Assembly (NCBI GenBank): GCA_964454175.1
Contig: CAYVSA010000029.1
Coordinates: 1,520-23,920, forward strand
Source of the DNA: an uncultured Pseudomonadota bacterium
Lineage (GTDB): Bacteria > BMS3Abin14
DNA: 22,401 bases
Direction of reading: 5' to 3'
The stretch's first letter is position 1. Each line of letters opens with the position of its first letter. The translations under genes and the position numbers were made by a program. Below the pieces are notes generated by a model. That model had not been told where the DNA came from. It worked only from the letters and a program-made list of their open reading frames with translations, and did no database searches. Below, one piece after another: positions 1 to 20,609 of the stretch.

Positions 1-1109
1 CCGAGGCCGTTGGTGTTGAGGCGGATCTTTCCCGCGCCGGCTTCCTTCAGGCGTTTTCCGATTTCCTTAACTTCTTCCAGCCGCATGGTCGGCTCACCGT
101 AGCCGCAGAAGACCACCTCAGAGCGCTCCTGCCATTTTTCCTTTTCCAGGGCCGACACCATCTCGTTTACGGTGGGATCGGCTGCAAGGCTCAGGTCGTG
201 GCCCTTGACGACGGGGTTGGTACTGCGCTGACAGTAAGTGCACTCATTCGTGCACCTGCCAGTGACGTTAAGGTAGACAGAATCCCGTATCGTGTAGGCC
301 ACCCTGGCATCAGGATCTGAGAGGGGAAGGCTGAAAAAATGAATTGCGTTCCTCGAGGTGATCCGCGCCACGTCAGCTACGGAGAGCTTCTTGACCTGCG
401 CGATTTTCTCGCCCACAAGGGTCACGTTTGCCGGTTCGTTGCGCTTTCCGCGGTGCGGGTGCGGCGTCAGGTAGGGACAGTCGGTTTCTACCATCATCTT
501 TTCCAGCGGGACGGTGGAAAGTATTTCGTCGGCCCATTCGCGGTTCTTGCTGGATGGGAAGGTTATGGTCCCGGTAAAAGAGAGGAATGCGCCAAGATCG
601 AGAAAAGCGTGAGCGTCGTTAACTGTTCCGGAAAAACAGTGGATGACGCAGCCACGCTCAGGCAGGCCTTCATCCCGCATTATGTCCAGGGATCTTTCAT
701 AGGCGTCCCGGACATGAACGACCAGCGGTAGAGAACTTTCCTTCGCCAGCCTTATGTGCTTTCTAAATGAATCTTCCTGGACGGGCCTGGGAGAACGGTC
801 TCTGAAAAAATCGAGCCCGGTTTCGCCGATCCCGACTACTTCCTGATTGCCGGAGAGCTTCTTGAGTTCGGCCAGGGCGCCTGTATCGAGCTCTGCCGCA
901 TCGTGGGGATGGATCCCGATGACAGCCGAAACGGTCTCCCTTGCCTCAGCGATCTTTACAGCCCGTCTGCTCTCCTCAAGAGTTGAGCCTACAGTAACGA
1001 TGTGAATGACCCCCGCTGAATGAGCCCTTTCGACGACCTGATCAAGGCCGTCGCGGAACTGTTTCATTTCCAGGTGGGCGTGGGAGTCAATAAACGCGAC
1101 ATTGTCCAT
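1..1109 (-). CDS. tatD: TatD-family metallohydrolase fused to a C-terminal TatD-associated radical SAM domain (3' end truncated by window edge)
   Basis: Manual translation of the minus strand from ATG at 1109 gives MDNVAFIDSHAHL..., GIHPHDA, GIGETGLDF, VVHVRDA, IHCFSG and VETDCPYLTP (TatD motifs). It continues in frame into YTIRDSVYLNVTGRCTNECTYC (CxxxCxxC at 231-254), VVFCGYGEPT and RLNTNG. No stop occurs in the window, so the ORF track omits it. Confidence 0.93.
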   Translation of the reverse strand, partial: MDNVAFIDSHAHLEMKQFRDGLDQVVERAHSAGVIHIVTVGSTLEESRRAVKIAEARETVSAVIGIHPHDAAELDTGALAELKKLSGNQEVVGIGETGLDFFRDRSPRPVQEDSFRKHIRLAKESSLPLVVHVRDAYERSLDIMRDEGLPERGCVIHCFSGTVNDAHAFLDLGAFLSFTGTITFPSSKNREWADEILSTVPLEKMMVETDCPYLTPHPHRGKRNEPANVTLVGEKIAQVKKLSVADVARITSRNAIHFFSLPLSDPDARVAYTIRDSVYLNVTGRCTNECTYCQRSTNPVVKGHDLSLAADPTVNEMVSALEKEKWQERSEVVFCGYGEPTMRLEEVKEIGKRLKEAGAGKIRLNTNGL

Positions 1110-6275: not shown

Positions 6276-6718
6276 GTCTGCGCCTCCCCGTTCAGGACTT
6301 TTATGTAGTCGCCTGTTTTAATAGTTCCGCTCTTGAGGACTCTTGCAAAAACGCCCTCCCTGGGCATGACGCAGTCACCTGCCTGGTAATAAATGGCGCA
6401 CTTGTCGTGGCACTCCTTGCCGATCTGGGTGATCTCGACCAGTGAATTTGTTCCCAGGCGGAGTCTTGTGCCGATCGGAAGCTCACATAGATCGATACCC
6501 TGCGTCGTAATATTTTCCGCAAAATCCCCCGGCCCGACGTCGAGCCCGAGATCAACCATTTTCGCAATGCTTTCGCTGGCAAGGAGGCTCACCTGCCGGT
6601 GCCACTTGCCCGCGTGGGCATCTCCTTCAATCCCGTGATCTGCCATCAGTTCAGCGGTCTTCACGTTGTCTTTCCTGACACCTTTTGTGTCGCTGACAGA
6701 TATTGCTGTGATCTTCAT
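6269..6718 (-). CDS. MOSC domain protein (YiiM-like)
   Basis: GIEGDAHAG, RQVSLL, PGDFAENIT, EITQIGKECH...C...CVMPREGVFARVL. Start placed at ATG 6718, with GGAG upstream. Confidence 0.92.
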   Translation of the reverse strand: MKITAISVSDTKGVRKDNVKTAELMADHGIEGDAHAGKWHRQVSLLASESIAKMVDLGLDVGPGDFAENITTQGIDLCELPIGTRLRLGTNSLVEITQIGKECHDKCAIYYQAGDCVMPREGVFARVLKSGTIKTGDYIKVLNGEAQTC

Positions 6719-6759
6719 TAAATCGTGTCTCCGGTTTTTCGACAAGAAACAAGCGTCAC

Positions 6760-6788
6760 AGGATACATTAAGTAGTCAGGGTATTCAA
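6760..6788 (-). promoter_or_regulatory. Putative sigma70 promoter for the MOSC-mog-tmk-holB-yaaT-metG-tatD run
   Basis: Minus strand TTGAAT (6788-6783), 17-nt spacer, TATCCT (6765-6760). Confidence 0.45.
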
Positions 6789-9374: not shown

Positions 9375-10244
9375 TTATTGCGGGACATTTTCCTGAACAT
9401 GTTGAAAGCCTATGGACAGGGCGAATACCAGCCTCTTCATTACGTCCAGATCGGGGTCCCAAAGCATGGCGGCATCAATTGTACCATTCATGTCCCTGTA
9501 TGTAAGCCCGAAGGCATACCTGGTCTGATTCCCGGCAAGGTCCTGGTACCCGGCTCTCAAAACAAGGGCGTTGAGGGGACTGAATACCAGGCCTGCCCTC
9601 GTTTCTCTTTCTCCCGGATAGGTCAGGTTAGTAGTCTCATCCAGGTCAGCGGCGAAAGAAACGCCCCATGGAAGCTTCATTGTGATGCCGTAGGCGCTTG
9701 ATCGGCCGGAAAGTACTGCGTCACTCCTGTAAACATTCCTGGCCAGGTACCCGAGGGTGAGCTTCGGCACGGGTATTAAAGTGAATCCCAGGTCAAGGCC
9801 CGATACAGCTTCGGTCTTGCCGGAAGTGCCATTTATGTGATCCCCCGAGTGGAAGCTTTCACCCAGTACAAATGTCGAGCCTGCGGACTGGGCAAAGGCT
9901 ACTCCCCACAGGTTGTTCTCGAAACCGGCAAAGGCGGGTTCGCCTATGTAGATTAAAGCTCCACGTACCTTTGATTTGGTATCAACAACGCTGTATTGGA
10001 ATGTTCCGTCAGCCGCAGACCTGTCTCTTATGAAATCCCCTCCAACATAAAAGGTTCCGTAGTGCCTCAGGGTCGCCGGGTTCCCAAGTACGGAAGAGGC
10101 ACCCCCTGTAGTTGCCAGCGCAGTTCCCCCTCTTCCCAGGGAGCGCGCGTCCGTTCCAGGTGCGGGAAAGGAAAGTGAGGCACAATACGCCGGTCCTGCA
10201 GTGATCGCTGCCGCAAAGGTGATCACCGCAATTACCCTCTTCAT
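9375..10244 (-). CDS. Secreted outer-membrane beta-barrel, PorV/FadL-like (UPF0164-type)
   Basis: Signal peptide MKRVIAVITFAAAITAGPAYCA, then the N-terminal plug signature ARSLGRGG...GNPATL and alternating strands (LDLGFTL, LTLGYLARN, LVLRAGY, YAFGLTY, LVFALSIGF). Confidence 0.65.
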   Translation of the reverse strand: MKRVIAVITFAAAITAGPAYCASLSFPAPGTDARSLGRGGTALATTGGASSVLGNPATLRHYGTFYVGGDFIRDRSAADGTFQYSVVDTKSKVRGALIYIGEPAFAGFENNLWGVAFAQSAGSTFVLGESFHSGDHINGTSGKTEAVSGLDLGFTLIPVPKLTLGYLARNVYRSDAVLSGRSSAYGITMKLPWGVSFAADLDETTNLTYPGERETRAGLVFSPLNALVLRAGYQDLAGNQTRYAFGLTYRDMNGTIDAAMLWDPDLDVMKRLVFALSIGFQHVQENVPQ

Positions 10245-10413
10245 GATGCTGTTGTTATAATCTCCTGATTGGGCTGTCAAGCACATTAAATTTTTACACC
10301 GGTCCGGGGCCCGCAAACCGGCCGAAATGCTTTGAAGTACGTTTAATTTAACTGGACACGACGGTTTAAATAAAGTATCTATCTTCTATTTTCAGCAGGA
10401 CGGGCGTGAAAAT

Positions 10414-14964: not shown

Positions 14965-15231
14965 TTACCAGATATCGGAATCTATATTCCCGAAACGTTT
15001 CACCAGGACATCCACTATGGCCCTGTTGTATGGTGTCCAGCGCTGGGGCATACCCTTATCTACCCGGGAATCGTAGAGTTTTCTTCCCTCTTCCAGCTGA
15101 TCGCTGAGATCCTCGAAGAGAGAGTCGTTCTTGATGCTCTTCCTGATAACATCCTGATTATAAAGAGCGATGTCGGACATGATGGTCCTCGCCAGGCGTA
15201 CAGCGTCCTTTGGTTCGATGATCAGGTTCAT
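14965..15231 (-). CDS. 88-aa protein resembling RomX (MglA GEF component)
   Basis: A.RLARTIMSDIALYN...I..D.LFE.L...LEEGR.LY.SRV...YNRAIVDVLV...I.S.IW matches my recollection of myxobacterial RomX; GGAGG Shine-Dalgarno. Family assignment is from memory, not a search. Confidence 0.7.
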   Translation of the reverse strand: MNLIIEPKDAVRLARTIMSDIALYNQDVIRKSIKNDSLFEDLSDQLEEGRKLYDSRVDKGMPQRWTPYNRAIVDVLVKRFGNIDSDIW

Positions 15232-15735: not shown

Positions 15736-16650
15736 TTACTTAAAGTCACGTCCTGTCAGCATACGGTATGCTTCAAGGTACTTCTCTCTTGTTTTTGCAG
15801 CAATCCCGGCCGGCAGAACCGGAGCCGGGGGCGTCTTGTCCCAGTCCAGACTCTCCAGGTAATCCCTTACGAACTGTTTGTCAAAGCTGGGGGGACTTTG
15901 ACCAACGCTGTAACTCTCAACCGGCCAGAACCTCGAAGAGTCCGGTGTCAGGACCTCATCAATAAGAATTATCTCACCGTCGATGACTCCGAATTCGAAC
16001 TTGGTGTCCGAGATAATGATCCCCTTATCCAGAGCATAATCCCTGGCTTTTTCGTAAATCTGTATGGTTACATCCCTCAGTCTGGCGGCGGTTTCCTTGC
16101 CAATAATGTTTGCGGCTTCCTCAAAGGGGATATTTTCATCGTGGCCAGAGTCAGCCTTGGTTGCGGGTGTGAAAATGGTTTCGGGAAGAATCTGGGCCTG
16201 CTTTAGCCCCGCGGGCAGCTTGATCCCGCAGATGACCCCGTTATCGAGATAGTCTTTCCAGCCAGAGCCGGCCAGATATCCCCGTGCAATACACTCAACA
16301 GGGAACGGCGAGGTCTTTTTTACGAGGAGGCTTCTTCCTTCAAGCTGGGCAGAGTATTTTCTCAGGGAAGGCGGAAAGTCTTCCACTCTGTGGGCGATAA
16401 GGTGATTCGCGATGATATCGCTGGTGAACTCGAACCAGAACAGGGACATGGCTGTCAATATTCTTCCCTTGTCCGGTATTCCGTTGGGCATTATGCAGTC
16501 GAAGGCGGAGATGCGGTCCGTGGCTACAAGAAGCAGTTCGTCTCCAAGGTCGTAGACATCCCGTACCTTGCCCTTCCTGAAGAGTTCGAGTTCGGGGATG
16601 TCGGTGCTGGTAACTTCCAGACCGTTTCCCTGTGAGGATGACTTTGACAT
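15736..16650 (-). CDS. purC: SAICAR synthetase
   Basis: [76 protein letters not shown]. Start placed at ATG 16650, with AAGGAG upstream. Confidence 0.97.
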
Positions 16651-16730
16651 TGGTGCCTCTCCTTCCCCCGATGATAAAAAATTCACTCTTACATGAAATA
16701 TATCCCGTTTGCAATTGTATTGGTGGGTTA

Positions 16731-16899: not shown

Positions 16900-16939
16900 T
16901 TCAGTCATATTGCGGTTTTCTTGAGAATAGGATACGGAC

Positions 16940-18565
16940 CTGATTAAAGAACCCACCAAAAGCGAATCAGCCGGAAGGCTTGTCTCAGAACTGGTAAAAT
17001 CCTTCAAAGCCAGGGGAATTTATCCTGCCGGGCATCCGGCACGGGGCCGCTTCCTCGGAAAACTTCTTCGAAGTGTTGAAACCTTCCTGGAAAAATACAG
17101 CAATCTTGATCTGAGCATTAAAAAGGAAGGTGTGTGGATGGAAGGGGAATTCCTTAAAACCAGTGATGGAGCCCATCTCTTCCTGGCAGAGGAGTGTTTT
17201 GCCCGTCAGATCAACGGGATAAGGCTCGATAGCGGGTTTTCCGGACAGGATCTCGATGGCTTGTTCTCACTCCTTGCCGAAGACCCTGAACAGGTGAGAG
17301 CCCTGGGGGGGGCTGCCGCGTATATCAGCGCCCGATCCACCGATTCCCTTACTGTTGCAGAGGTTGACTATTCCGGTATCCTGGAGCGCAGGAAAGAGAC
17401 TTCGCCGGAGAGGGGCAGCAGCTACGCGATAGACGGCCAGGCAAAGCAGCCGGCGATGGAAAGCGGCGTAGCTCCCGGTACAGATAACGTGTCTCCAGAG
17501 TCCCTGTCACCTGCTGTTTTCGACGATCCAGGGGTTGCCGAAGTTTCTCTGGAGGACAGGATCGGTCGTAAACTGAAGAAGCTTGATGAAGCTGCTGACC
17601 CTGCTTCCTACAAAAGCGCGCTCATGGAGATCAGGGAAAGCCTCAGGGCAGTCGATGCAATGAGCCTTGACAGGTATACTGCAACTGTATTTCGACACCT
17701 GGGAAGCCATCTCACCAGTGAGAGGCCGGGTGAAATGCTTACCCTTGTACAGCGAACGTTAATGGGTTTTTCTGTCCAGGGCCCTCTCGAAGATCTGGCA
17801 AGGGACCTCAGTCACCGTTCTGCTGTTGAAAGGGACCGGGCTATCGCCGTGCTGCAGGCAGTCGGCGACACTTCCATCCCGGCACTACTAAAATGCCTGT
17901 CCGAAGAGGATGAGGCTTTCGGGCGCAAAGCCATGATCACCGCCCTGGGAGAGTTCGGCGAGGCCATGAGACCCCATCTCCTGGAGTGGCTCGACGATGA
18001 CAGGTGGTACGTCCTGAGAAACATTATCGACCTTCTGAGCCTGGTCCATACGGATGAGGACTCTTCGAAAGTCATCTCCTTTTTGGACCACAACAACAAG
18101 CAGGTGCGGTTAGCCGCTCTCAGATTCATGATGGGGCACCCCGCCAGGATGCCGGAAGAAAGGATCCAGGCGCTTCTGGCGGACACTGACAGGGATGTAA
18201 GGGCTCGAGCCATCTACGCAATTGGTGTGCTCAAGGGCGAAAGAGGGCTCGGCCAGCTTTTTGACCTTGCAAAGAAACCAGCCATAGGCCAGGGTGACAT
18301 AGCCACCAGGGAGGGCGCCATCAAGGGTATTGGCCGAGTGGGGGGGAACGAGGCTATCCGTTTTCTCGAGGGACTCCTGAACAGGAAGTCAATACTGGAT
18401 CCGGATGGAAGTAGCAGGATCCGCAAGGCAGCAGTTGGCGCTCTGGTAAAGATCGGGGGTCCCGGGGCAACATCGGTGTTAAGGGGAGCTGTAAAGATCC
18501 TGAAGGGCGAGGCGCGAAGGCAGGCCGAGGTTTTCCTGCGGCAGGGCGCCGAAAGGGCAGAGTGA
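16940..18565 (+). CDS. HEAT-repeat protein with N-terminal YPAxHP domain (probable CTG start; track start 17132)
   Basis: Frame is open from the TAG at 16928-16930 and encodes ...FKARGIYPAGHP.... A low-complexity linker is followed by HEAT/PBS-lyase repeats (IPALLKCL, DDRWYVLRN, KQVRLAAL, DVRARAIYAIG, REGAIKGIG, RKAAVGAL). Confidence 0.85.
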   Translation: MIKEPTKSESAGRLVSELVKSFKARGIYPAGHPARGRFLGKLLRSVETFLEKYSNLDLSIKKEGVWMEGEFLKTSDGAHLFLAEECFARQINGIRLDSGFSGQDLDGLFSLLAEDPEQVRALGGAAAYISARSTDSLTVAEVDYSGILERRKETSPERGSSYAIDGQAKQPAMESGVAPGTDNVSPESLSPAVFDDPGVAEVSLEDRIGRKLKKLDEAADPASYKSALMEIRESLRAVDAMSLDRYTATVFRHLGSHLTSERPGEMLTLVQRTLMGFSVQGPLEDLARDLSHRSAVERDRAIAVLQAVGDTSIPALLKCLSEEDEAFGRKAMITALGEFGEAMRPHLLEWLDDDRWYVLRNIIDLLSLVHTDEDSSKVISFLDHNNKQVRLAALRFMMGHPARMPEERIQALLADTDRDVRARAIYAIGVLKGERGLGQLFDLAKKPAIGQGDIATREGAIKGIGRVGGNEAIRFLEGLLNRKSILDPDGSSRIRKAAVGALVKIGGPGATSVLRGAVKILKGEARRQAEVFLRQGAERAE

Positions 18566-18566
18566 A

Positions 18567-19925
18567 GTGACCACGGAAGCTAAGCTCGTGGAAAGCTACA
18601 GGAACGTTATCAAGTTTCTGGATAATACGACCAAGAACGTAGGCATGTACCCTGCCGAGCACCCGTCTGTTGCCGCTCCTGCGGGAATGATGTTCGAAGC
18701 GCTGGGAGAAGTATACTCTCACAGTGATGAAGTGCTGATAGGCGTTATCAATAGTGTGCTGTACATAAACGATTACCTTTTTTACGACAGTACTCCCAGT
18801 TCCAGGCATATTCTGGAAAAACTTGAGAAGTTCGGGATCGACGATCTGGTCGTCCGCAAAGGCGTTACGCAGGTGGAGATGCTGGAACTGGCTGGAATTC
18901 TAAACGCCAGGGGAAGCACCAGGGAAGAGTTCATAAAGCTCCTGGAGGAAAAGAAGCTCGATTATGTGGGCTTGAAAAGTTTCACCCTGGGAGATGATGA
19001 GGATGGTGACCTGCCTGTAAAGGGGCTGCAGCTCTACCACGACGCGGTTTCCACGATGACGGACCTGTTTTCAAGGGTAAAGTCCGGAAAGATGCCGCCC
19101 TTTGGTGAAACAGAAGAGGTCGTTGACGGGTTCGTGGACAAACTGTCTTCTAACAGATCACTCCTCAAGCTTCTTTCCAGCCTCAAGAGCTACGACGCGT
19201 ATACATATCAGCACTGCGTTAATGTCGGTATCCTGGCACTGCTCCTTGGTGAAGCCGAAGGGCTCGAGGACCAGAACCTGAGGTGGGCCGGTGTTGCCGG
19301 CATGATGCATGACGTGGGAAAGGTGAAGATAATACCTGAGATCCTGAACAAGCCTGGGGGGCTGACTCTCCGGGAGTGGGAGACCATGAAAACGCATCCA
19401 TCGTTTTCCGCCGAGATCGTGCAGGGAATGGGTGGTTCAGGTGAAGTTGTTATGGCTGTCGGGGGCCACCACATGAACTTCGATGGGTCAGGTTATCCTG
19501 TTAGATCGGATGGCCTGGGACCATCTAACCTGGCGAGCCTGGTGTCGGTCGTGGATGCCTACGATGCCATTACCACCATCCGTTCATACAAAAAACCCAT
19601 GGATCCTGTTGAGGCCCTGGAATTTCTGAGGAACGGCAGGGGTTCGAAATTTAATCCACTTCATGTAGATACCATGTTGAAAGTTGTCGGTGAATATCCT
19701 CCGGGGACCCTGGTTCGCCTGACAAGCAACGAAGTCGTCGTTGTGGTTGAATCAGGAGAAAGCGCCGGAAACCCGGTCGTCAGGATGATTGTCGATGAAG
19801 AGGGAATTTTGGTTGACGAGCGTGTGGATCTTGACCTCGCAGGAGAGGGGGCTCAGGGAAGAGCGGTCGCATCGGTGGTCGACCCCGTCCTCTACGGTTT
19901 TGACCCGGCCCAGGTACTGGCCTGA
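18567..19925 (+). CDS. HD-GYP cyclic-dinucleotide phosphodiesterase with N-terminal YPAxHP domain
   Basis: YTYQHCVNV, HDVGK, ILNKPGGLT..EW..MKTHP, HHMNFDGSGYP, VDAYDAITTIRSYK, C-terminal YPPGTLVRLTSNE; GTG start 1 nt after the HEAT stop. Confidence 0.92.
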   Translation: MTTEAKLVESYRNVIKFLDNTTKNVGMYPAEHPSVAAPAGMMFEALGEVYSHSDEVLIGVINSVLYINDYLFYDSTPSSRHILEKLEKFGIDDLVVRKGVTQVEMLELAGILNARGSTREEFIKLLEEKKLDYVGLKSFTLGDDEDGDLPVKGLQLYHDAVSTMTDLFSRVKSGKMPPFGETEEVVDGFVDKLSSNRSLLKLLSSLKSYDAYTYQHCVNVGILALLLGEAEGLEDQNLRWAGVAGMMHDVGKVKIIPEILNKPGGLTLREWETMKTHPSFSAEIVQGMGGSGEVVMAVGGHHMNFDGSGYPVRSDGLGPSNLASLVSVVDAYDAITTIRSYKKPMDPVEALEFLRNGRGSKFNPLHVDTMLKVVGEYPPGTLVRLTSNEVVVVVESGESAGNPVVRMIVDEEGILVDERVDLDLAGEGAQGRAVASVVDPVLYGFDPAQVLA

Positions 19926-19928
19926 TCC

Positions 19929-20516
19929 TTAATCGGCAGCTTCAAAAGGGTAGAGATTGCCAAGAGCTTCGGCTGCCTTTGACCTCAGGAACGGATCCGA
20001 TGTACGTGCAAGGACCTCTACCAGCGATGTCTCGGCCTTTGGGTCGCCGTTCCTGCCCAGGGCCTCTGCGGCAACACAGGCTGTGTCCGTGTCCGGGTTT
20101 GTCAGAAACGGGATCATAAGGTCCGTTGCCCTGTTGTCCCTGAAATAGGATATGGTTTCGAGGGCTATCTGGACAACGGATGGGTCCGGGTCGTCCATAC
20201 AGGTGGCCAGGGGTATAAAGGCCTTCTCCGGCAGGTTCACCTGGAAGGATTTGATAGTCGCCACCCTTATTCCTGGATCCGGGTCCTGAAGGAGAGCAAG
20301 AGCCGTATCGACTGCATCGGAAGTCCTGAGGTATCCCAGGAAATGGATAGCTCTTATGCGGTTCTGGGTGTCACCGCCTCTGGCAGCTTCGAGAATTCCC
20401 TCGATCCTCTCCATTCCTTCGATCCTGTTCAAGGCTCTGGATGCCGCGCCCCTCACGATCTCTTCAGAGTCTTTCAGGGCGTTAACGAGGGCCTTTTTCC
20501 TGTTATCCAGGGACAT
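19929..20516 (-). CDS. Small HEAT-repeat (PBS lyase-like) protein
   Basis: Repeats ALKDSEEIVRGAASRAL, LQDPDPGIRVATI, MDDPDPSVVQIAL, LTNPDTDTACVAAEALG, DPFLRSKAAEALG. Start placed at ATG 20516, with GAGGAG upstream. Confidence 0.88.
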   Translation of the reverse strand: MSLDNRKKALVNALKDSEEIVRGAASRALNRIEGMERIEGILEAARGGDTQNRIRAIHFLGYLRTSDAVDTALALLQDPDPGIRVATIKSFQVNLPEKAFIPLATCMDDPDPSVVQIALETISYFRDNRATDLMIPFLTNPDTDTACVAAEALGRNGDPKAETSLVEVLARTSDPFLRSKAAEALGNLYPFEAAD

Positions 20517-20580: not shown

Positions 20581-20609
20581 ATTATATGGTAATTTTGGAC
20601 GGTTAACAA
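20581..20609 (-). promoter_or_regulatory. Putative sigma70 promoter of the small HEAT gene
   Basis: Minus strand TTGTTA (20609-20604), 17 nt, TATAAT (20586-20581). Confidence 0.55.

Follow-up and report, generated by a model that had tools for sequence, protein, structure and literature searches.

Gene organization of the locus

The window analysed here, a stretch of 22 401 nucleotides of contig CAYVSA010000029.1 from an uncultured Pseudomonadota bacterium, contains on its plus strand two co-oriented genes that sit between purC and a short convergent HEAT gene and whose products begin with the same type of domain, marked by a YPxxHP motif and hereafter called the N-domain. The upstream gene encodes a HEAT-repeat protein and the downstream gene a protein of the HD-GYP phosphodiesterase class. 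The features of the pair, numbered from the first nucleotide of the window, are as follows.

16940..18565, plus strand: HEAT_N gene, with 541 codons when CTG 16940 is taken as the start (Pfam HEAT_2, E = 5.6e-26), laid out as N-domain, disordered-looking linker, helical region and HEAT repeats
16929..16932, plus strand: AGGA, a possible ribosome-binding site judged by its position 7 nucleotides before CTG 16940
16940..17350, plus strand: N-domain of the HEAT protein, residues 1–137, with YPAGHP at residues 28–33
17132..17134, plus strand: GTG, the first canonical start codon in the HEAT frame, at residue 65 and inside the N-domain
17831..18499, plus strand: HEAT-repeat region, residues ~298–520, with Pfam HEAT_PBS at 298–321 and HEAT_2 at 407–483, in four stretches
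HEAT protein residues 414–528: HEAT-ARM match (PADLOC)
18567..19925, plus strand: HD-GYP phosphodiesterase gene, 452 residues, GTG start (Pfam HD_5, E = 9.1e-19; HD, E = 2.7e-14)
18567..18974, plus strand: N-domain of the HD-GYP protein, residues 1–136, with YPAEHP at residues 28–33; a divergent copy
18978..19019, plus strand: acidic low-confidence linker of the HD-GYP protein, residues 138–151, with a predicted local distance difference test score (pLDDT) below 50 in the full-length model
19161..19691, plus strand: HD-GYP catalytic domain, residues 199–375, from the alignment to PDB entry 4mcw and Foldseek matches
19692..19886, plus strand: β-rich C-terminal region of the HD-GYP protein, residues 376–440, without a Pfam family

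Both genes lie where the initial annotation had placed them, with a single nucleotide between the stop codon of the HEAT gene (TGA, 18563–18565; the frame is open from 16931) and the GTG at 18567 that starts the HD-GYP gene, which ends at 19925; the two are thus laid out like an operon. The naming of the first product as a HEAT-repeat protein is borne out by scores that pass the curated Pfam cut-off: HEAT_2 reaches 91.1 bits (cut-off 27.7), HEAT 37.7 bits and HEAT_PBS 26.4 bits, all of these matches being restricted to residues ~298–520.

Homology of the two N-termini

The ungapped alignment of about 110 N-terminal residues on which the initial annotation had based a shared domain is reproduced exactly, with 18 identities in residues 1–115 at the positions that it gave (E4, E9, S10, L18, K23, G26, Y28-P-A-x-H-P, G40, S75, E84, I91, G99, L108 and L112). 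Its BLOSUM62 score of 29, compared with −108 ± 22 for shuffled sequences, was reached by none of 20 000 shuffles, and the score obtained after removal of YPxxHP was reached by one of 20 000. Pairwise BLASTP of the two N-termini gives a weak match (E = 0.009; 49 residues, including a three-residue gap), and hhalign with shallow profiles of close relatives gives probabilities of 67.5% and 79%. The deep profile, however, gives a strong result: when a 126-row alignment was compared with the HD-GYP N-terminal family (20 sequences), hhalign returned a probability of 98.9% and E = 1.2e-17 for an alignment of 131 columns that is interrupted by just one gap, of three residues. This profile comprises the 127 single-long-match hits among the best 150 matches of the search described below, minus the two of HD-GYP type, plus the window sequence. 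The controls are far weaker, with E = 0.29 for the reversed alignment, 0.0013 to 0.44 for ten column shuffles and 9.3e-4 for the catalytic domain.

When the window and seven related loci were scanned in all six frames with a hidden Markov model (HMM) of the deep profile, the only matches at E ≤ 1 are open reading frames of HEAT type and HD-GYP type; the window HEAT protein scores 139.8 bits and the window HD-GYP protein 42.4 bits (E = 2.1e-12). A shallow HMM of six HEAT-type rows gives the latter just 8.9 bits, which is not significant library-wide, and the link between the two window proteins thus needed the deep profile. The shallow HEAT-only profile does reach HD-GYP proteins elsewhere in the library (P0077 at 5.7e-12 and P0114 at 1.2e-10), and BLASTP with the window HD-GYP N-terminus finds the same two (2.7e-8 and 9.4e-7, respectively). 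On these profile comparisons, the HEAT and HD-GYP proteins begin with a homologous domain of ~135 residues, of which the window HD-GYP protein carries a divergent member. No Pfam model (2025 copy) matches either N-terminus at E ≤ 1, no NCBIfam model (release 20) matches either of them and PADLOC has no model for the N-domain; the domain is therefore unnamed in these collections, as had been claimed.

Predicted fold

The AlphaFold model of the HEAT N-domain, computed from a 63-row alignment (A3), has a pLDDT of 97.2 and a predicted template-modelling score of 0.89. It contains helices at residues 7–27, 33–53, 78–88, 102–113, 116–121 and 125–132 and strands at 55–61, 64–67 and 93–97, with the YPAGHP loop between the first two helices. 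The HD-GYP protein was modelled at full length from HD-GYP-type sequences alone (A4), and its N-domain has helices at residues 5–24, 33–50, 77–88, 102–112 and 119–128 and strands at 55–61, 64–67 and 93–97. The two independent models thus agree in the order and register of helices and strands, in keeping with the proposal of a common domain, and the predicted layout is helix, YPxxHP loop, helix, β-hairpin, helix, strand and three helices. In both proteins the N-domain is followed by a segment of a different character: residues ~150–205 of the HEAT protein are of low complexity (57% Pro, Ser, Glu, Gly, Asp, Thr or Gln), and residues 138–151 of the HD-GYP protein have a pLDDT below 50 in the full-length model and lead into the catalytic helices.

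With the N-domain model as query, Foldseek found no relative at E ≤ 1e-3 in BFVD or in the PDB, where the best match has E = 0.19 and template-modelling (TM) scores are ≤ 0.30, and a PDB sequence search with the HEAT N-terminus returned nothing but antibody light chains at E ≥ 0.71. The ESM Atlas, searched by features, returned unnamed clusters alone (0.89–0.91). The structural neighbours of P0031, a protein with two tandem N-domains, have TM scores of 0.43–0.52 and serve as leads only; an HD/HD_5 cluster is among them (TM 0.52). A likeness to the N-terminal domain of PmGH (4mcw) is unsupported, since the superposition of the full-length HD-GYP model on 4mcw covers 426 aligned columns with a root-mean-square deviation of 17.7. 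The N-domain is, as modelled, an α/β unit whose predicted fold is unmatched among solved structures. A complex prediction for the two N-domains (A3 with residues 1–152 of A4) scored 0.00 against a mark of 0.32; it was run without controls and weighs neither way.

The HD-GYP enzyme

The assignment of the second gene to the HD-GYP class is supported by Pfam, by sequence and Foldseek matches in the PDB and by a full set of metal ligands. Pfam HD_5 and HD matches are confined to residues 211–364. In phmmer searches of the PDB the best match is PmGH (4mcw; E = 5.3e-27 over residues 199–375), with 5z7c at 3.3e-17 and 4r8z at 8.8e-11, and Foldseek with the full-length model returns 4mcw, 3tm8 (Bd1817), 4r8z (PA4781) and 9rbz (DvhD) with E values of 1e-8 to 3e-6. 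The metal ligands align with those of PmGH. Residues His216, His248-Asp249, Lys252, His277, His301-His302, Asp330 and Gly309-Tyr310-Pro311 are invariant in the 18-sequence alignment A4. Because these His and Asp ligands, Lys252 and the GYP residues are all invariant, the enzyme looks competent, and it is predicted from its sequence to be probably an active cyclic-dinucleotide phosphodiesterase.

The published signature of the class is HHExh(D/N)GxGYP (Galperin and Chou, section 5). In the window protein the corresponding segment is HHMNFDGSGYP (residues 301–311; 19467–19499, plus strand), which keeps all elements of the signature but for a Met in the place of Glu; the family consensus has this Met too. 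The residue aligned with the loop Glu of PmGH is Tyr212, and a near-invariant Asp210 lies two residues earlier. In the β-rich C-terminal region (residues 376–440), Tyr377, Pro378, Gly380, Val383, Arg384 and Leu385 are invariant.

The start of the HEAT gene

The start of the HEAT gene at 16940, as initially annotated, stands in part: the reading frame and the alignment with orthologues agree with it, but the codon at this position is CTG, which is not canonical. The frame contains no ATG, GTG or TTG between the stop at 16928–16930 and GTG 17132. The initial Met of the orthologues P0016 and P0017 aligns with CTG 16940, and an ATT follows at 16943. The database copy of the window protein (P0020, 475 residues) begins at ATG 17138 and lacks half of the N-domain. 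Identity to P0016 is 73% in residues 1–64, 75% in residues 65–137 and 68% in residues 138–541. One related locus (L006) likewise has a CTG, preceded by AAGAGG, where the start of its HD-GYP gene aligns. Translation from 16940 is favoured because AGGA lies 7 nucleotides upstream, residues 1–64 are conserved and initiation at residue 65 would leave just half of the fold. We think that the N-domain is translated from a noncanonical start, or that its start codon was lost very recently or was misread in the assembly.

Distribution and architectures of the N-domain

A profile (A2) built on the HEAT-type N-termini of the window and of five related loci was searched against 1.84 billion cluster representatives and matched 1559 representatives (clustered at 50% identity) at E ≤ 1e-3, a total that takes in some motif-level matches to TPR_10/TPR_12 proteins; 93 representatives matched at E ≤ 1e-10 and six at E ≤ 1e-30. 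A tblastn search of plasmids with the N-domain gave no match. Pfam results for the best 150 of the 1559 matches give the following architectures.

N-domain with HEAT repeats: 95 of the best 150, mostly 505–615 residues, with a second group of 645–860 residues; includes P0134 (6.4e-8)
N-domain with HD-GYP: 2 of the best 150, P0077 and P0114, from other lineages than the window
No Pfam family: 34 of the best 150, many of them short
TPR_10/TPR_12 proteins: 19 of the best 150, often with CHAT, with 6–12 matches each at profile positions ~14–57 alone

Five proteins of ~300–350 residues among the best 150 (P0031, P0034, P0041, P0045 and P0063) carry tandem N-domains and no Pfam family, and P0073 and P0120 have two N-domains ahead of HEAT-like regions. 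P0128 (1388 residues), which is listed among the tandem-copy proteins, combines GGDEF, AAA_16, N-domain and HEAT. The TPR-type matches are P0028, P0032, P0033, P0035–P0037, P0044, P0047, P0048, P0074, P0079, P0083, P0094, P0105, P0118, P0123, P0152, P0161 and P0166, and some of them carry NACHT-like or kinase domains besides CHAT.

Across the 126 rows of the deep alignment, seven residues are near-invariant: Tyr28 (98%), Pro29 (87%), His32 (97%), Pro33 (94%), Arg89 (88%), Gly123 (92%) and Gly124 (86%). All seven are present in the window HEAT protein. The window HD-GYP family has invariant blocks of its own (KFLDN, IGxINGVLY, YLFYE and DDL). The P0077 family comprises 31 clusters at 90% identity, all annotated at source as HD-GYP or HD proteins, with one cluster from Candidatus Polarisedimenticolia. 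A FastTree phylogeny of 155 N-domains, rooted at its midpoint, groups all 29 HD-GYP-type copies in a single 30-tip clade (support 0.83) and gives the window HD-GYP family a long branch (1.8), so that long-branch attraction is possible. Because these copies group in a single clade, the HD-GYP N-domain is, on this midpoint-rooted tree, an old paralogous branch and not one copied recently from the adjacent gene.

Conservation of the gene pair

When GTDB species representatives were scanned with the HD-GYP N-terminal alignment, seven loci (L001–L007) were obtained, all from one lineage. In L001, L002, L004, L005 and L006 the gene directly upstream on the same strand encodes a protein of ~530 residues with YPxxHP near its start and 40–57% identity to the window HEAT protein. 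The pair is therefore adjacent and co-oriented in all five loci in which the upstream gene is fully visible; in L003 the upstream gene is present and is cut by the contig end, and L007, which has no upstream DNA, lies outside the count. The statement in the initial annotation that similar pairs exist in other genomes is thereby confirmed within this lineage. The spacing varies from an 11-nucleotide overlap (L005) through 3–4 nucleotides (L001 and L002) to gaps of 175–210 nucleotides (L006 and L004), so that the pair is tightly packed (4-nucleotide gap to 11-nucleotide overlap) in four of six cases, the window included. As the loci come from related genomes, this adjacency is weak evidence of coupling. 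In L006 a run of N at ~6660–6760 interrupts the HD-GYP gene, with unrelated sequence beyond; it is probably a scaffold join or a masked stretch, and the locus is uninformative past HD-GYP residue ~220.

The genes that flank the pair in the window are the following.

15736–16686, minus strand: purC, the neighbour preceding the gene pair
19929..20516, minus strand: HEAT2, which runs convergently to the pair and encodes a short all-HEAT protein (Pfam HEAT_2, E = 3.7e-26)

By tblastn, HEAT2 lies tail to tail with the HD-GYP gene in five loci (L001, L003, L004, L005 and L007), and in the same five a gene for a family-5 solute-binding protein follows it. HEAT2 has ~195 residues, all HEAT, with a weak match to NCBIfam DVU0298 (E = 2e-4) and no N-domain match in the deep-HMM six-frame scan. 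A promoter-like site at 20609–20581 favours ATG at 20516 as its start. HEAT2 is a possible candidate for a third member of the module. In L005, purC, RseC, rluD and an 88-residue open reading frame are also syntenic with the window. This reading frame (window 14965–15231, minus strand), which matches no Pfam family at E ≤ 1e-5, shares 82% identity with its counterpart between the rluD and RseC homologues of L005. Elsewhere in the window, a 313-residue open reading frame at 9375–10316 (minus strand) likewise has no Pfam family at E ≤ 1e-5, and a single open frame at 3–1109 (minus strand), which runs out of the window, contains a complete TatD_DNase domain and after it the beginning of a Radical_SAM domain, representing either a fusion or a missed boundary.

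Comparison with known domains

The second window protein shares with other HD-GYP proteins an HD-GYP domain at the C-terminus, complete in its metal ligands and GYP, and a noncatalytic N-terminal domain of 120–140 residues. It differs from them in that this domain is none of REC, GAF, PAS, DUF3391 or DUF3369 (Pfam, E ≤ 1) and in that the linker is disordered-looking (pLDDT below 50) and is not an S-helix. DUF3391 has four strands followed by two long helices (Galperin and Chou, section 10). In the N-domain two long helices come first, PF11871 (the Bd1817-type DUF3391) gives no match at E ≤ 1 and 3tm8 is not among the 50 listed Foldseek matches of the N-domain model. For GAF, PAS and REC there is likewise no Pfam match, the best GAF-like Foldseek match being PelD (E = 0.43, TM 0.20). 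DUF3369 is GAF-like (Galperin and Chou, section 11), which the N-domain is not.

The first protein in its C-terminal half, and HEAT2 throughout, match bacterial HEAT and PBS-lyase HEAT-like proteins (HEAT_2 and HEAT_PBS), whose models are silent on the N-terminal 137 residues; the combination with an N-domain is a separate, recurrent architecture. With TPR_10/TPR_12 the N-domain shares an x-G-H-P turn followed by a helix, which is matched repeatedly in TPR/CHAT proteins, but just ~40 profile positions match, and the predicted N-domain adds a β-hairpin and strands and forms a single globular unit. No TPR model matches either protein at E ≤ 1; we therefore reject membership of TPR_10/TPR_12 for what is modelled as a single α/β unit, and we regard the TPR matches as a motif-level resemblance. 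An anti-phage defence system was also considered and rejected, PADLOC yielding a generic HEAT-ARM stretch and weak Cas3 HD matches (E = 3e-3).

Possible roles of the N-domain

In the initial annotation the common domain was proposed to form heteromers or to bind one ligand in both proteins, by which the HEAT protein would localize or control the phosphodiesterase. We infer, tentatively, that the N-domain is a flexibly tethered docking or oligomerization module that unites the phosphodiesterase with the HEAT scaffold. The N-domains would join the HD-GYP enzyme and the HEAT protein directly as a heteromer, or through a common partner, and the degradation of cyclic di-GMP (c-di-GMP) would then be local, at the place where other proteins are held by the HEAT solenoid; the convergent HEAT2 protein might be a third member of such an assembly. 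Docking is favoured because HEAT repeats, the module that most often accompanies the N-domain, serve as a scaffold for binding and not as an output enzyme, and because the N-domain of the enzyme has lost the polar residues most conserved in other copies and keeps a very conserved surface of its own. That a low-complexity or low-confidence segment, and not a rigid signalling helix, follows both N-domains points to a tether rather than an allosteric sensor, and the occurrence of tandem copies in single polypeptides suggests that two N-domain copies work together. A link to c-di-GMP enzymes recurs elsewhere, since P0128 combines GGDEF with the N-domain and HEAT.

Several observations weigh against a docking role. 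The best 150 matches include 95 proteins with N-domain and HEAT and just two with HD-GYP, and most proteins of the former kind may work without an HD-GYP enzyme. The conserved Tyr/His/Arg/Gly-Gly set would also resemble a ligand pocket. The window HD-GYP family keeps YPxxHP but has Phe89 in place of Arg and no Gly-Gly, and the function of its N-domain may, as judged from the missing Arg89 and Gly123-Gly124, be altered or reduced. The window HEAT gene is without a canonical start for its N-domain. Finally, purC, rluD, RseC and the solute-binding protein gene are syntenic as well and the loci come from one lineage, so that the adjacency of the pair could be inherited rather than selected.

A different role is one that we consider doubtful as a whole: the N-domain would be a sensory input domain, through which the HEAT protein and the phosphodiesterase answer the same ligand without contact, the ligand being a small molecule, possibly a nucleotide or metal, bound at YPxxHP/Arg/Gly-Gly. 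HD-GYP proteins do carry unrecognized N-terminal sensor domains (Galperin and Chou), a single N-domain ahead of HEAT, HD-GYP or GGDEF-AAA-HEAT is the usual pattern of bacterial input domains, and the polar residues Tyr28, His32, Arg89 and Gly123 are near-invariant (98, 97, 88 and 92%, respectively). Yet the link to the catalytic domain is acidic and of low confidence, with no continuous helix, the window HD-GYP protein would be blind to the ligand without Arg89 and Gly-Gly, HEAT repeats would be an odd output and no fold relative points to a pocket. It is rather unlikely, in turn, that the N-domain is a self-association domain used by each protein separately, for example in HD-GYP dimerization, and that the adjacency is inherited and implies no coupling. 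This would accord with the suggestion that DUF3391 could promote an active HD-GYP dimer (Galperin and Chou, section 10), with the tandem copies if these are taken as the N-domain pairing with itself, with a synteny that reaches well past the gene pair and with the gaps of 175–210 nucleotides in L004 and L006, which argue against obligatory translational coupling; it fits less well with the retention of the pair in every informative locus at 40–57% protein identity and its tight packing in four of six cases.

Two further explanations concern the reality of the shared domain in the window. The HEAT gene could be damaged or shortened, with translation from GTG 17132 or ATG 17138, so that the first 64 residues including YPAGHP would remain unmade and the HD-GYP protein alone would have the domain. 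Such a start would be in line with the lack of ATG, GTG or TTG before 17132 and with the 475-residue database copy, but residues 1–64 are as conserved (73% to P0016) as later parts, AGGA precedes CTG 16940 by 7 nucleotides, a CTG start also occurs in the L006 HD-GYP gene and a start at residue 65 would split the predicted fold, all of which makes a shortened gene improbable. The chance that the N-terminal similarity is a fortuitous or convergent helix-capping motif (x-x-H-P), as in TPR_10, is almost negligible: 19 of the best 150 matches are TPR_10/TPR_12 proteins that match profile positions ~14–57 alone, and BLASTP of the pair extends over 49 residues, but the deep alignment has 131 columns, the pairwise score survives removal of the motif (1 of 20 000), no TPR model is found on either protein at E ≤ 1 and the secondary structure agrees over the entire domain. 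The alignment length and the shared secondary structure contradict this explanation.

Returning to the docking module, its boldest version, to which we assign a small probability, would make the YPxxHP domain a heterodimerizing second-messenger receptor in which the HEAT copy binds a nucleotide signal at its Tyr/His/Arg/Gly-Gly residues and the degenerate HD-GYP copy pairs with it, giving a self-contained local c-di-GMP circuit found in more than 1000 clusters and several phyla.

Significance

Among c-di-GMP phosphodiesterases, the HD-GYP proteins form the class that is less understood, and for most of their N-terminal domains no signals or partners are, to our knowledge, known. Local c-di-GMP assemblies hold a cyclase or phosphodiesterase on a partner. 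An enzyme tethered to a scaffold is the principle proposed here, from the genes and their predicted products, and none of the reported assemblies is known to use the N-domain. For HD-GYP proteins the reports on such assemblies are very few (Galperin and Chou, concluding remarks). The N-domain is not among the HD-GYP-associated domains catalogued in the main text of that review, in which the word HEAT does not occur, while Table 3 or the supplements could list such an architecture. Literature searches, which covered their sources in part, returned nothing on a HEAT/HD-GYP pair and none on HD-GYP with PBS lyase.

What appears to be new is the N-domain and its sharing by both proteins; the HD-GYP enzyme and the HEAT half are ordinary members of their classes. 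A large unnamed family, with a confident but unmatched predicted fold, connects a class of HEAT-repeat proteins that is widespread with an HD-GYP enzyme. At a minimum, the N-domain merits a family entry and a structure. If the docking role is true, the pair would belong to the very small number of cases in which an HD-GYP enzyme signals locally, and it would open a first way to the function of hundreds of bacterial HEAT proteins.

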